From UHGV virus genome UHGV-0172060: 22,377 bases of DNA; one strand, written 5' to 3'. Below, in pieces: positions 3,877 to 9,340 of the stretch; position 1 is the first letter of the stretch; the number at the start of each line of letters is the position of its first letter. The translations under genes and the position numbers were made by a program. The DNA comes from a virus. The notes beneath the pieces were generated by a model that searched no databases, was not told the DNA's origin, and saw only the letters and a list, made by a program, of their open reading frames with translations.

Positions 3877-4239
3877 TTAATGACCTGCTGCGCGGAGTTT
3901 TCCGTCAGGTTCACCGGCAAGAGTCAGTAATTGTCCCTGGTCTTCCTGCAGAATAGTCAGGCGACCACCGCGATTGACATACATCGGCGTTTCGGTGGTG
4001 TCTTCTTCGGAAATTTTCCCGCGGTTAGTCGGGCGAACATATGAGAGTTTGTGTTTGATTTTCACACGGTTCTCATCAAATGGTTCGATTTCCAGGTTGA
4101 GTGAGACCTTACCTTTGGTTTTCGTGTTCATCACACCGGAAGCGACTTCACTGAGAACTGCGCCGATTTTGGTTTCAAATACGCCGCCGTCCAGCTCCCC
4201 GATAAATTCCTGCACGTTGGTACTGCGTTCGCTAGCCAT
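3877..4239 (-). CDS. hypothetical phage protein (YfdP-like), first gene of the leftward early operon
   Basis: Start placed at MASERS (ATG 4237-4239) with GAGGAG 7 nt upstream; the ORF-track start at 4470 lies inside a highly structured leader with no SD. In-frame ATGATG at 4253-4258 is an alternative start. Confidence 0.6.
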   Translation of the reverse strand: MASERSTNVQEFIGELDGGVFETKIGAVLSEVASGVMNTKTKGKVSLNLEIEPFDENRVKIKHKLSYVRPTNRGKISEEDTTETPMYVNRGGRLTILQEDQGQLLTLAGEPDGKLRAAGH

Positions 4240-4376
4240 TTTGCTGCTCCTCATCATATCGACCCTGCAAGGTCGGTTGGTTTCTCCACAAAACAGAGAA
4301 GAACACCTGCGGTGGTAGCCGCCCGGATGGATTGGGTTATGAGCCCGTCGTCCGGTGATGCTCTTCTCTGTTTTGT

Positions 4377-4422
4377 AAAAAGAGCGGTACCAGCCGGAAG
4401 CAAGTGTACAAACTGGTACCGC
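4377..4422 (-). terminator. intrinsic-terminator-like hairpin in the early-left leader (tL-like), followed by a boxA-like motif
   Basis: On the minus strand: gcggtaccag-(17 nt loop)-ctggtaccgc followed by tcttttta. The sequence CGCTCTTTTTACAA resembles rrn/lambda boxA (GCTCTTTAACAA). Confidence 0.4.
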
Positions 4423-4825
4423 CAAAGCAGTGGCTGTTGTGGTGGGGTTGTCACTCAGGCGTATGGTCAACCTGACAATCCGGTGTCCTCAACGGGGAAA
4501 GAGTAACCCCGCCATACTTACCGCCGCGCCATTTCGCGGATTACCACAACGCTGAGAGCACTTAGCCAGTTACGGCACCACACTTTGTCGAGGTTCCATA
4601 AATGCCCTCATCGTTGCACCCTGGTCTCTTCCCAGGCGTCAAACCGAATCGCCACGCTGGTTAGGCGTCTTATCAGCATCCTCATTGACTTGCACATTCC
4701 GGCTACCTGGTTTGTTTGCCCGAGCAAGGAGTGGATTGTCCCCTTTAACGTCCCCAGACCGCTAACGACGCATGTGCCATACGCCGTGTTACAACCAAAT
4801 TTTGTCAGGACCTTGTTTGTTGGTC

Positions 4826-4890
4826 TGGAAAGAAAGATAAAATGAAATTGCGTAACGTGCAAGTATTTTATTGCGAGATATGCAATAGCG
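4826..4890 (-). promoter_or_regulatory. PL-like early-left promoter with two repressor operators (ATTGC-N7-GCAAT type)
   Basis: Minus strand: -35 TTGCAC, 17-nt spacer, -10 TATCTT. Operator palindromes at 4870-4886 (ATTGCGAGATATGCAAT, perfect arms) and 4847-4863 (ATTGC-N7-GCAAG); the same half-sites recur in the cI/cro intergenic region. Confidence 0.5.
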
Positions 4891-4921
4891 TGAGTAATGA
4901 AAAGCCACCTTCTGGTGGCTA
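4890..4921 (-). terminator. rho-independent terminator downstream of the repressor gene (tImm-like)
   Basis: Minus strand: agccacc-agaa-ggtggct followed by tttcatt, about 20 nt after the repressor stop at 4942. Confidence 0.6.
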
Positions 4922-4941
4922 ATTGATGTTGAGGTAGGGGG

Positions 4942-5634
4942 TTAATTGTGTCGCTTAAGGGTTTGTGACTGACTGATTAAGACCTTTCCAAAGACCATAA
5001 ACCGGTGTTCGTTTTCGCTGGTAATTCCCCATTCGCGGTAAATCTGATTATCAGAAATTACCAGCAGTTTATCAGGTATCATTTGCAGTCGTTTGACGTA
5101 AATTTTATCATCAAAACCAAATACATATATACCATCCCCATCAAACTGATTGATACTGATATCAACGAAGATGAGATCTCCTGGCTCAATGGTTGGACAC
5201 ATACTGTCCCCACGAACGTTGATAACTTTAATGTGATTTGCTGGTCGTCCACCAAACATCGATACAGCATTATCAGTTCTGTATTCAATGGCATGAATCA
5301 CATCAATGACATCACCGCCCTGGATAAGGCCATTTCCCGCACTGGCACTGACATCCAGCATTTCAATACGGAATACATCCTTCACCTGCGCAACATCCTC
5401 ACTAATACTGTTTTTACATACAGTATTACTTTTGAGGTCTGAGGTAAAGAGATCAGCAATATCAACACCTAAGCTCCTGGCAATATTACTCAGGGCTTGT
5501 TCAGTGAATTGTTTCTGCTTACCTGTTTCGAGGCGCGAGATATTCGCCGCATCCACTCCTATTGCTTCAGCGAGATCGGCGATTTTCATGTTCTTCGCCT
5601 GGCGAAGTTGTCTGACTCGATTTCCTATGTTCAT
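4942..5634 (-). CDS. cI-like prophage repressor (XRE HTH + S24 LexA-like peptidase domain)
   Basis: N-terminal HTH (RQLRQAKNMKIADLAEAIGVDAANISRLETGK); C-terminal S24 signatures (GDSMCPTI serine, VKRL lysine); divergent from a cro-like gene. Confidence 0.9.
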   Translation of the reverse strand: MNIGNRVRQLRQAKNMKIADLAEAIGVDAANISRLETGKQKQFTEQALSNIARSLGVDIADLFTSDLKSNTVCKNSISEDVAQVKDVFRIEMLDVSASAGNGLIQGGDVIDVIHAIEYRTDNAVSMFGGRPANHIKVINVRGDSMCPTIEPGDLIFVDISINQFDGDGIYVFGFDDKIYVKRLQMIPDKLLVISDNQIYREWGITSENEHRFMVFGKVLISQSQTLKRHN

Positions 5635-5731
5635 GCGTTTATTACATTTCTTTATTGCGCGTTAAGCAAATCAACTTGCGCAAAATATTTGCGTGAAATA
5701 ATATGCTCATCACGCAATATGTGGAGGTTAT
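5635..5731. promoter_or_regulatory. divergent PRM/PR promoter region with operator repeats (OR-like)
   Basis: Sits between the divergent repressor and cro-like starts. Candidate PR: -35 TTGCGC, 17 nt, -10 TAATAT. Operator-like sites ATTGCGCGTTAAGCAAA (5654-5670), TATGCTCATCACGCAAT (5702-5718) and palindrome CGCAAAATATTTGCG (5677-5691). Confidence 0.6.
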
Positions 5732-5992
5732 ATGCAATCACCATTACGGAATGTGCGTAAGGCGCACGGATTTACTTTGCAGCATGTTGCTGCGGGCGTT
5801 CAGGTCAATCCAGCGACGCTGAGTCGTATTGAAAGACTGGAACAAATTCCATCTATCGATCTTGCAGAACGTCTGGCCAATTTTTTTAAGGGTGAAATCA
5901 GCGAAATGCAGATTCTTTATCCGGCACGTTTTCAATCTAGCCAAAACCAGAATGGGTTTAAACCACAGGAACAGGAGGTAAGCCGTGGGTAA
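5732..5992 (+). CDS. Cro-like XRE-family HTH regulator
   Basis: 86-aa HTH protein (GFTLQHVAAGVQVNPATLSRIER) transcribed divergently from the repressor; GGAGG SD. Confidence 0.8.
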   Translation: MQSPLRNVRKAHGFTLQHVAAGVQVNPATLSRIERLEQIPSIDLAERLANFFKGEISEMQILYPARFQSSQNQNGFKPQEQEVSRG

Positions 5993-6536
5993 GCATCATT
6001 GGAAAGTGGAAAAACAACCTGAGTGGTACGTGAAAGCTGTCAGAAAAACTATCGCGGCATTGCCAGGGGGTTACGCTGAAGCTGCTGACTGGCTGGATGT
6101 AACAGAGAACGCTTTATTCAACCGCCTTCGTGCAGATGGCGATCAGATTTTCCCGTTGGGATGGGCAATGGTTTTACAGCGTGCTGCTGGCAATCACCAC
6201 ATTGCGGATGCTGTCGCACAGTCTGCTGGTGGGGTGTTTGTATCACTTCCTGAAATTGAGGAAGTAGAGAACGCCGATATCAACCAGCGCCTGCTGGAGG
6301 TCATTGAACAGATCGGCAGTTATTCCAGACAGATTCGTTCAGCAATTGAAGACGGGGTGGTGGAACCACACGAGCAGGCAGCAATTAACGACGAGCTGTA
6401 CATGTCAATTTCGAAGCTGCAGGAGCATGCAGCACTGGTCTACAAAATCTTTTGCGCTCCAGAAAAGAGTGACGCCCGCGAGTGTGCAGCTCCGGGCGCC
6501 GTGGCGTTTTGTGTCTGTGGAGAAACTAACGCATGA
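5985..6536 (+). CDS. CII-like/YdaT-family early regulatory protein (putative)
   Basis: 183-aa ORF with GTG start and AGGAGG SD, overlapping the end of cro; its position after cro matches the CII/YdaT slot of lambdoid and Rac-type prophages. Family assignment tentative. Confidence 0.5.
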
Positions 6537-8364: not shown

Positions 8365-9017
8365 TGAGTAATAAATATTGCCAGGAGCTGGTGGAACTGC
8401 GGAACAAACCAGCCCATGAACTGAAGGAAGTGGGTGATCAGTGGCGCACGCCGGACAACATTTTCTGGGGAATTAACACCCTGTTTGGCCCGTTTGTTCT
8501 GGATCTGTTCACTGACGGTGATAACGCCAAATGTACCGCGTATTACACGGCGGAAGACAACGCGCTGGCGCATGACTGGTCAGAACGCCTTGCGGAGCTT
8601 AAAGGTGCTGCCTTTGGTAATCCTCCATACAGCCGCGCCAGTCAGCATGAGGGGCAATACATCACCGGCATGCGTTACATCATGAAACATGCCAGTGCCA
8701 TGCGTGATAAGGGCGGGCGCTATGTTTTCCTGATCAAAGCTGCCACCAGCGAAGTGTGGTGGCCGGAAGATGCAGATCATATTGCTTTTATTCGCGGGCG
8801 TATTGGTTTTGAACTGCCTGTCTGGTTTATCCCGAAAGACGAGAAGCAGGTACCGACAGGAGCTTTTTTCGCTGGTGCTATTGCTGTTTTTGACAAGACC
8901 TGGAAGGGATCGGCAATCAGCTACATCGGGCGCGATGAACTTGAGGCATGTGGTGAGGCGTTTCTGGCGCAGGTTCGCCAGCAGGCGGAAAAACTGGTCA
9001 GGGAGATGGCGGCATGA
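8364..9017 (+). CDS. phage Dam-like N6-adenine DNA methyltransferase (orphan)
   Basis: FGNPPYS catalytic motif (NPPY); ~217 aa; TAATG-coupled start with GGGGG SD; no adjacent restriction endonuclease. Confidence 0.75.
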   Translation: MSNKYCQELVELRNKPAHELKEVGDQWRTPDNIFWGINTLFGPFVLDLFTDGDNAKCTAYYTAEDNALAHDWSERLAELKGAAFGNPPYSRASQHEGQYITGMRYIMKHASAMRDKGGRYVFLIKAATSEVWWPEDADHIAFIRGRIGFELPVWFIPKDEKQVPTGAFFAGAIAVFDKTWKGSAISYIGRDELEACGEAFLAQVRQQAEKLVREMAA

Positions 9018-9340
9018 CGACATTAACTCAATGCCAGCAGCAGGTGCTGGATATGCTGATTTCTTATCAGAAAGAGCGTGGCTTTCCGCCAACCAATCAG
9101 GAGGTGGCAACCATGCTGGGATACCGTTCAGTGAATGCAGCGGTGGAGCATCTTCGCGCACTGGAGAAAAAAGGCGTCATCACGATAAAGCGTGGCGTGG
9201 CCCGGGGGATAACGCTTCATACCGCGGTGAAGGACGACGACAGCGAGGCGGTCGGGATTATCCGCGCACTGCTTGCCGGTGAGGAAAACGCAAGGCTGCG
9301 TGCAACCCACTGGTTACATGAGAGGGACCTGAAAGTATGA
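9014..9340 (+). CDS. LexA N-terminal DNA-binding-domain homolog lacking the S24 peptidase domain
   Basis: Residues 1-70 align closely with the LexA DNA-binding domain (LT..QQ.V.D.I......G.PPT..E.A..LG.RS.NAA.EHL.AL..KGVI.I..G..RGI.L); the protein stops at 108 aa with no protease domain. Confidence 0.75.
   Translation: MTTLTQCQQQVLDMLISYQKERGFPPTNQEVATMLGYRSVNAAVEHLRALEKKGVITIKRGVARGITLHTAVKDDDSEAVGIIRALLAGEENARLRATHWLHERDLKV

Follow-up and report, generated by a model that had tools for sequence, protein, structure and literature searches.

The DNA analysed here, called the window throughout, is a 22,377-nucleotide (nt) stretch of the virus genome UHGV-0172060, in which positions 4500-6300, holding a phage repressor gene (cI) and a divergent cro-like gene, were read in detail. 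Four 17-mers on either side of cI are very probably the operators of a lambda-type lysis/lysogeny switch, as judged from where they lie and how they are conserved among related phages. The left operators (OL) are at the predicted early-left promoter (PL), and the right operators (OR) are at the predicted promoters of cro (PR) and of repressor maintenance (PRM). The features concerned are as follows, with scores in bits from the weight matrix described below.

4847-4863: OL1, predicted promoter-proximal left operator, ATTGCGTAACGTGCAAG; 17.9 bits, second-best match in the window; over the PL -35 and spacer
4870-4886: OL2, predicted upstream left operator, ATTGCGAGATATGCAAT, a perfect motif; 19.1 bits, top match in the window
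4903-4920, - strand: intrinsic terminator ending the cI transcript, from a terminator scan; annotated in phage SfII
4942-5634, - strand: cI repressor gene, 230 amino acids (aa); Pfam HTH_3 1.1e-10 (N-terminal) and Peptidase_S24 PF00717 5.9e-19 (C-terminal)
5654-5670: OR3, predicted cI-proximal right operator, ATTGCGCGTTAAGCAAA; 16.6 bits; over the PRM -35 and spacer
5679-5693: outward-facing palindrome CGCAAAATATTTGCG, equal to CGCAA-N5-TTGCG; subclade-specific
5702-5718: OR1, predicted cro-proximal right operator, TATGCTCATCACGCAAT; 15.4 bits; over the last part of the PR -10 and over the predicted start
5732-5992, + strand: cro-like gene, 86 aa, divergent from cI; Pfam HTH_3 5.8e-10; GGAGG at 5723-5727

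An earlier, sequence-only reading of this DNA had proposed a candidate OL/OR operator set from five elements, the four sites and the palindrome, and direct reading of the sequence found all five where it had placed them. The three matches to its motif ATTGC-N7-GCAAT with at most one mismatch, together with the two-mismatch site at 5702-5718, all fell within the two non-coding stretches adjoining cI, and the non-coding stretches holding the four sites amount to 212 nt, or 0.95% of the window. While that motif located the sites correctly, the consensus is better written as the 15 base pairs (bp) TTGCG-N5-YGCAA. A weight matrix was built from 31 sites, solely from relatives with CI at most 84% identical to the CI of the window. 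When it was used to scan the approximately 22,000 positions of the window, the four sites were the top four matches, and the next best scored 7.9 bits. First-order Markov sequences of the same length had a mean of 0.18 matches of at least 15 bits, and four were reached in none of 2000. Because the matrix was built from homologous DNA, these scores measure conservation and not independent recurrence.

The immunity region was found to be 96-99% identical in the coliphages PhiR47_1, PhiR40_1, PhiR55_1 and mEp460, as well as in phiSTEC1575-Stx2k, 1720a-02 and the Stx2a phages Stx2a_1447 and WGPS2, and 90% identical in Shigella phage SfII. Among complete E. coli genomes, 1,036 of 5,426 matched at least 80% of a query covering 4500-6000. 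Distant CI homologues (67-84% identical) were taken from a Salmonella phage, two Klebsiella phages, the coliphages Flotzy and Eeyore, and genomes of Shigella, Citrobacter, Pseudescherichia, Klebsiella, Buttiauxella and Trabulsiella. For the alignments, 16 different sequences of the cI-cro intergenic region and 14 of the DNA downstream of cI were used. A check by hand of 16 loci, drawn from eight genera, showed sites at matching positions to the left and right of cI. TTGC(G) and (Y)GCAA were invariant or nearly so at every site of the aligned relatives. At OL1 the halves TTGC and GCAA were invariant around a variable centre (TAACG, AGATA, CATTA, GTAAC or AAATG), and OR3 likewise had invariant halves and a variable centre in 16 sequences. 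The mean pairwise identity was 0.91 for half-site columns, 0.50 for the central 5 bp and 0.66 for the remaining intergenic columns, and the difference in conservation between half-sites and centres was significant (Mann-Whitney p = 1e-8). The centres of OL1 and OL2 are 23 bp apart in the window; in relatives their position was conserved and the spacing was 22-24 bp.

A pooled sample of 91 distinct flank pairs, which included 49 different CI proteins and 61 different right-hand flanks, was then scored for sites of at least 9 bits. The motifs were conserved in homologous immunity regions, one of the comparisons by which the sequence-only reading could have been refuted, both in the 16 hand-checked and in the 91 distinct loci. 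The positions occupied were:

about 28 nt upstream of the cI ATG: OR3-position site, 91 of 91 loci
49 nt upstream of the cI ATG: OR2-frame site, 17 of 91 loci
about 76 nt upstream of the cI ATG: OR1-position site, 90 of 91 loci
about 126 nt upstream of the cI ATG: cro-internal site, 53 of 91 loci
about 62 and about 86 nt past the cI stop: two left sites, 89 of 91 loci

A reverse search of IMG/VR was carried out using the left-operator pair only (TTGCG-N5-YGCAA, 6-10 nt, TGCG-N5-YGCAA), and at least 120 stretches matched. In 91 of the 120 matches listed, the recognition-helix string xAN[IV]SR[LV]ETGKQ was encoded no more than 1.5 kilobases away; of the remaining 29, at least eight were cut by a contig end and the others were GC-rich and unrelated.

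CI residues 3-64 match Pfam HTH_3, HTH_26 and HTH_31, and Ala99-Gly100, Ser144 and Lys181 were invariant in the alignment with relatives and with the CI of phage HK022. By its sequence, CI is predicted to have the hallmarks of an autocleavage domain, namely a Ser/Lys dyad and an Ala-Gly site, as lambda-type repressors do. The stem of the cI terminator showed compensatory changes in relatives (GCCACC/GGTGGC, GGCCTC/GAGGCC and CCGCC/GGCGG) with the T-run retained. The cro-like gene is annotated as Cro in SfII, PhiR47_1 and the Stx2a phages, and the next gene after it is a CII-like gene of the Phage_CP76/YmfL type.

Both in the reverse search and in the pooled loci, the motif was present together with the helix xAN[IV]SR[LV]ETGKQ. 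It was not found at repressor regions with other N-terminal domains, namely those of HK022, SE1, 1W, SaltyDalty, Turner, Klebsiella phage 6 LV-2017, LLS and e14. The repressors of Turner, Klebsiella phage 6 LV-2017, SE1, 1W and SaltyDalty are 39-44% identical over nearly their full length and have different recognition helices; no TTGC...GCAA sites adjoining cI were found in these five. Where the C-terminal domain of the repressor is homologous but its N-terminal domain is of another kind, other palindromes stand in place of the motif. These data support the view that the operator sequence tracks the DNA-binding domain of the repressor. The sites had also been said to define the immunity specificity of this prophage. 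That proposal stands insofar as the motif appears to follow the N-terminal domain, but the half-site is not unique to this prophage and alone does not define a prophage-unique immunity, because it is common to the whole repressor clade (67-100% identical).

Other repressors were considered as relatives or partners for comparison and were rejected. K-12 e14 YmfK/YmfT is unrelated (23% identity, GGTACA-type sites), and HK022 CI was unsuitable as a covariation partner, its homology being confined to the C-terminal domain. Phage LLS was considered as the same system, but its CI has 209 aa, with 35% identity over 34 aa, and its palindromes are of the ACTAAG type. The operator specificity of the LLS repressor was stated as unknown in a 2025 paper (PMC12315714); as LLS CI is a different protein, that statement is not applicable here.

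The annotated start of the repressor differs between records. The GenBank records of mEp460 (piece 1909-2556) and Stx2a_1447 (piece 1841-2488) begin it at the second ATG, giving 215 aa; the first 15 residues are thereby lost, and with them residues 3-7, where the match to Pfam HTH begins. SfII and RefSeq take the 230-aa start, which fits the conserved leaderless-promoter geometry described below.

Invariant hexamers with invariant 17-nt spacing were found to overlap the predicted operators in the aligned relatives. The identity and start sites of PL, PR and PRM are predictions from these conserved hexamers:

4834-4839, - strand: predicted PL -10, TATCTT; AAGATA on the + strand is kept in 12 of the 14 relatives aligned, with a constant 17 nt to the -35
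4857-4862, - strand: predicted PL -35, TTGCAC, the right half of OL1; TTGCRY-17-TATCTT recurs in the window and in SfII, mEp460, Klebsiella and Flotzy loci
5641-5646, - strand: predicted PRM -10, TGTAAT; all 16 distinct sequences have ATTACA, at 17 nt from the -35
5669-5664, - strand: predicted PRM -35, TTGCTT, inside OR3
5674-5683, + strand: invariant ACTTGCGCAA, with the predicted PR -35 and an operator half-site; none of its 10 columns varies among 16 distinct sequences, unlike the 17-nt spacer that follows
5676-5681, + strand: predicted PR -35, TTGCGC, inside the invariant ACTTGCGCAA
5699-5704, + strand: predicted PR -10, TAATAT; 16 of 16 sequences have TAAYAT, 17 nt away from TTGCGC

The sequence-only reading had placed a PL-like promoter at 4847-4886; the sites are indeed at the predicted PL, but its -10 (4834-4839) falls just outside that span. 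OR1 begins inside the PR -10, and as these bases are shared with the -10, its left half is ATGC and not TTGC in every relative. The end of the PRM -10 is 7 nt upstream of the first base of the cI ATG, and a Shine-Dalgarno sequence was not seen ahead of cI in the sequence read. From this placement and the lack of a Shine-Dalgarno sequence, the cI mRNA is predicted to be leaderless, like that of lambda. Transcription is predicted to start near 4827 (leftward, from PL), 5711 (rightward, from PR) and 5634 (leaderless cI, from PRM).

The middle of OR differs within the clade, and two further elements need to be considered, one there and one inside cro:

5675-5691: OR2 frame, in which the window keeps the left half CTTGCG alone; -4.9 bits
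5752-5768: candidate fourth site in cro codons 7-12, TGTGCGTAAGGCGCACG; weak, 7.7 bits in the window

In relatives of the Klebsiella type and others, the OR2 frame is occupied by a conventional third operator of 12-15 bits (for example CTTGCGCAATTCGCTAG, 13.4 bits, and CTTGCGCAATTCGCTAA, 14.9 bits). Its centre is 21 bp away from that of OR3 and 27 bp away from that of OR1. The palindrome at 5679-5693, which the sequence-only reading had written as CGCAAA-N3-TTTGCG and counted with the operator set, did not survive as a family-wide member: it is confined to an E. coli/Shigella/Citrobacter subclade and was not found in relatives of the Salmonella, Klebsiella and Flotzy types; other relatives have the third operator at 5675-5691. 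Within the subclade, TTGCG at 5689-5693 is invariant and the 5 nt between the halves take eight forms. By its sequence, this element is a putative pair of outward-facing operator half-sites with the signature of conserved halves and a free centre, and such invariant halves around a freely varying centre would be the signature of a bound site. The symmetry CGCAA-N5-TTGCG cannot be read by the dimer geometry that reads TTGCG-N5-CGCAA. Cooperative capture of half-sites and a preference of Cro are both possible as its mode of binding. A PurR-like box was considered for this element and rejected, since the element has one base too many between its halves, has no central CpG and is not conserved beyond the subclade.

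The position inside cro reads ATTGCGGAAATCGCATG or TTTGCGAAAATCGCAAG in relatives. TGCG and CGCA are invariant there despite differing residues (Leu/Val and Ser/Ala), with Ser always TCG and Ala always GCG, whereas the third positions of the neighbouring Arg and Lys codons vary. As the bases are fixed while the residues differ and nearby third positions are free, selection appears to act on the DNA. The position is a candidate fourth operator for the clade; that it serves as an operator in this prophage is doubtful. We regard as tentative, and on balance unlikely, the idea that the switch of the subclade is not a plain copy of that of lambda, with the middle operator remodelled inside-out and a clade operator in cro about 50 bp past OR1. 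If both elements were functional, repression and autoregulation would proceed via an unusual higher-order arrangement; the options would then include dimers bridging OR3 and OR1 that capture the half-sites, a Cro-specific site, and a downstream roadblock or loop anchor.

The arrangement suggests the following mechanism. CI dimers would recognise the 15-bp inverted repeat TTGCG-N5-YGCAA through the HTH_3 N-terminal domain, and we infer that CI binds, possibly with cooperativity, at the predicted operators. Occupancy of OL1 and OL2, over and just upstream of the PL -35 (TTGCAC-17-TATCTT), would block early-left transcription, and occupancy of OR1, over the -10/+1 of PR (TTGCGC-17-TAATAT), would block transcription of cro. 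OR3 lies over the -35 of the maintenance promoter (TTGCTT-17-TGTAAT), and its occupancy would amount to negative autoregulation. PRM would start at the A of the cI ATG and give a leaderless mRNA, as in lambda. The middle position over the PR -35 offers half-sites alone in the subclade and would have to be filled with the aid of cooperativity. Induction, on the model of lambda, 434 and P22, would occur through RecA-stimulated self-cleavage at Ala99-Gly100 by Ser144/Lys181, which would empty the operators. Cro, a second HTH_3 protein, would then bind the same sites, again on the example of those three phages.

Several results weigh against this interpretation. Raw counts of the motif were not above chance: ATTGC-N7-GCAAT with at most one mismatch matched 3 times against 1.34 expected, 3 being reached in 17 of 100 shuffles, and with at most two mismatches it matched 15 times against 16.2 expected. 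Location and conservation were therefore used as evidence. The related loci are homologous DNA, and locus counts are not independent events. The OR of the window has just two full sites, 48 bp apart, and not a tripartite row of adjacent sites about two turns apart; with these distances and a middle operator at -4.9 bits, classical adjacent-dimer cooperativity is not evident at OR. No pairwise similarity was detectable between the N-terminal domain of CI and Cro, so that recognition of shared sites by the two proteins is argued by analogy alone. Finally, a sigma-70 consensus scan called none of PL, PR and PRM as defined here, because each -35 fits TTGACA at just 3 of 6 positions; its one leftward match in the OR region, TCCACA-16-TATTAT, was rejected, as its -35 is not conserved.

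Other explanations of the palindromes were weighed against the operator reading. It is practically negligible that they are chance occurrences: the raw count in the window equals expectation, but chance is rejected by the comparative data, that is, by the location in 0.95% of the window, the matrix scores and the conservation across eight genera. That the palindromes serve Cro alone or a different regulator of the phage, for instance the CII-like protein of the YmfL family, with CI binding elsewhere, is quite unlikely. Cro is also an HTH_3 protein and is encoded beside the sites, and since almost every locus with CI also has Cro, the two proteins cannot be told apart by co-occurrence. The sites, however, cover the predicted PL, PR and PRM, where a maintenance repressor must act, and no other repeated palindrome was conserved on both sides of cI in the aligned relatives. 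As far as is known, all lambdoid switches characterised (lambda, 434 and P22) have operators common to CI and Cro, which also counts against a role for Cro alone.

Three half-sites coincide with predicted -35 hexamers (TTGCAC, TTGCGC and TTGCTT), as would be expected if the TTGC/GCAA blocks were only promoter elements, -35-like TTGCxx on either strand, with incidental dyad symmetry. Yet OL2, one half each of OL1 and OR3, and the whole of OR1 fall outside every -35 and are no less conserved, each locus has 4-5 positions at which the same 5-bp gap separates conserved halves, and the motif follows the N-terminal domain of the repressor, not promoters; we consider this explanation very unlikely. 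The inverted repeats might instead form hairpins in early transcripts, acting in processing or attenuation and not as DNA sites. The cro-internal element was flagged as a stem-loop, and a symmetric change from TTGCG/CGCAA to GTGCG/CGCAC occurred there in the subclade. OL1, OL2 and OR3, however, are upstream of the predicted starts of the promoters that they overlap, the RNA stems would be of 5 bp only, and the same consensus at every position fits one protein and not differing RNA structures, making this extremely unlikely.

The proposed CI switch is like that of lambda in having divergent cI and cro genes, a repressor with a helix-turn-helix (HTH) and a LexA-like S24 domain that has an Ala-Gly site and is predicted to be self-cleaving, a terminator after cI, and a cI mRNA from PRM predicted to be leaderless. 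It also has several imperfect palindromes of one consensus on both sides of cI that overlap the predicted PL, PR and PRM, with adjacent OL sites about 23-24 bp apart. Unlike lambda, whose sites are 17-bp and of the TATCACCGC type, the operator here is the 15-bp TTGCG-N5-YGCAA; the left operators are two and not three, at PL and PRM the operators cover the -35 together with the spacer, the right operator in the middle is degenerate, and many relatives have an extra site inside cro. Cro is an HTH_3 protein and does not have the lambda Cro fold, and there is no N gene nearby. The C-terminal domain of CI is clearly homologous to that of HK022 (X16093), with 44% identity overall, and HK022 has the same 5-N5-5 geometry of a 15-bp operator (annotated TGAAC-N5-GTTCA), with two OL and three OR sites; its N-terminal DNA-binding domain, by contrast, does not align and its half-site sequence is unrelated. 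By Pfam, CI belongs to the same HTH family as 434 and P22 c2 (HTH_3/XRE-type), the solved structures closest to its DNA-binding domain are of 434-derived and XRE-family proteins, and P22-like repressors align over the full length at about 42%, but the recognition-helix sequence differs from those of 434 and P22. The known operators of 434 (ACAA-N6-TTGT) and P22 (ATTTAAG-type) both differ from TTGCG-N5-YGCAA.

The operator sequences were not found in papers of the literature searched, nor were they annotated in the GenBank records of SfII, mEp460 and Stx2a_1447. Very probably, this is an ordinary lambda-type switch of an E. coli prophage, with a recognition sequence that was not found described. 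It would add one more specificity among lambdoid repressors and leave the understanding of such switches unchanged. The immunity module is common, occurring in E. coli genomes, Stx2a-converting phages, phiSTEC1575-Stx2k, the serotype-converting phage SfII and mEp460, and a defined operator consensus would let homo-immune prophages be predicted. In Shiga-toxin phages, the affinity of repressor for operator sets spontaneous induction and toxin release, and the consensus would help to read promoter-operator mutations in these phages. It would also aid the design of reporters or repressor decoys.

The predicted PL leader to the first gene, yfdP (3877-4239, - strand), is 591 nt long (4240-4830, - strand) and unannotated in RefSeq. 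Its folding z-score against dinucleotide-preserving shuffles was -4.87, and two hairpins precede the first gene:

4290-4374, - strand: long hairpin in the PL leader with a stem of about 25 bp, before the first gene
4377-4423, - strand: intrinsic-terminator-like hairpin in the PL leader, GGCGGTACCAG...CTGGTACCGC then TCTTTTT, from fold and sequence

As this terminator and hairpin precede the first gene, early-left expression may need read-through or antitermination. No N homologue was found near the PL leader, and no similarity to HK022 putL/putR was found.

The leader also contains a conserved element of about 210 nt resembling a structured RNA (4583-4792, - strand), which begins about 35 nt into the predicted PL transcript. 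It recurs at 78-83% identity between tRNA-Ile and ban in P1/P7 (P7 piece 1508-1717) and, at the same identity, directly upstream of tRNA-Arg in phiV10-like podophages (piece 1193-1402). An invariant 22-mer of this element, CCAGGTAGCCGGAATGTGCAAG, was present in more than 120 IMG/VR contigs. Two of its hairpins have 6-10 compensatory double changes, and its loops carry indels of 4 and 7 nt, by which a coding function is excluded. No Rfam family reached its gathering score anywhere in the window, and nothing credible was seen at E <= 10 in 4200-5000; the element contained no tRNA and matched no paper in the literature searched. A second copy was not found in the window, nor is the element present in K-12 CPS-53. 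AgvB and AsxR were considered for it and rejected, as both have Rfam families, unmatched here, and both are in late regions.

Mosaic joints were observed at about 4778-4805, immediately downstream of where PL is predicted to start. The leader is 99% identical up to 4805 in Stx2c-converting phages and in phage cdtI, which have other immunity regions, and SfII shares the immunity region solely rightward of about 4778. By these sequence comparisons, the joints mark the putative left edge of an exchangeable immunity module.

An open reading frame (ORF) of 108 aa at 9014-9340 (+ strand), annotated by RefSeq as 'LexA family protein', lies between a DNA methyltransferase gene and rusA. Its N-terminal part resembles by eye a LexA-type DNA-binding domain, and it is too short to have room for an S24 domain as well. 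Such a LexA-like DNA binder lacking the cleavage domain could interfere with SOS control.

The genome of E. coli MB53 and the window are 100% identical over 4500-6000. Left of the early-left operon in MB53 (piece 165-269), a tRNA-dihydrouridine synthase gene that is truncated and a Panacea-domain gene were found. Their presence suggests that the prophage integrated in a dus gene.

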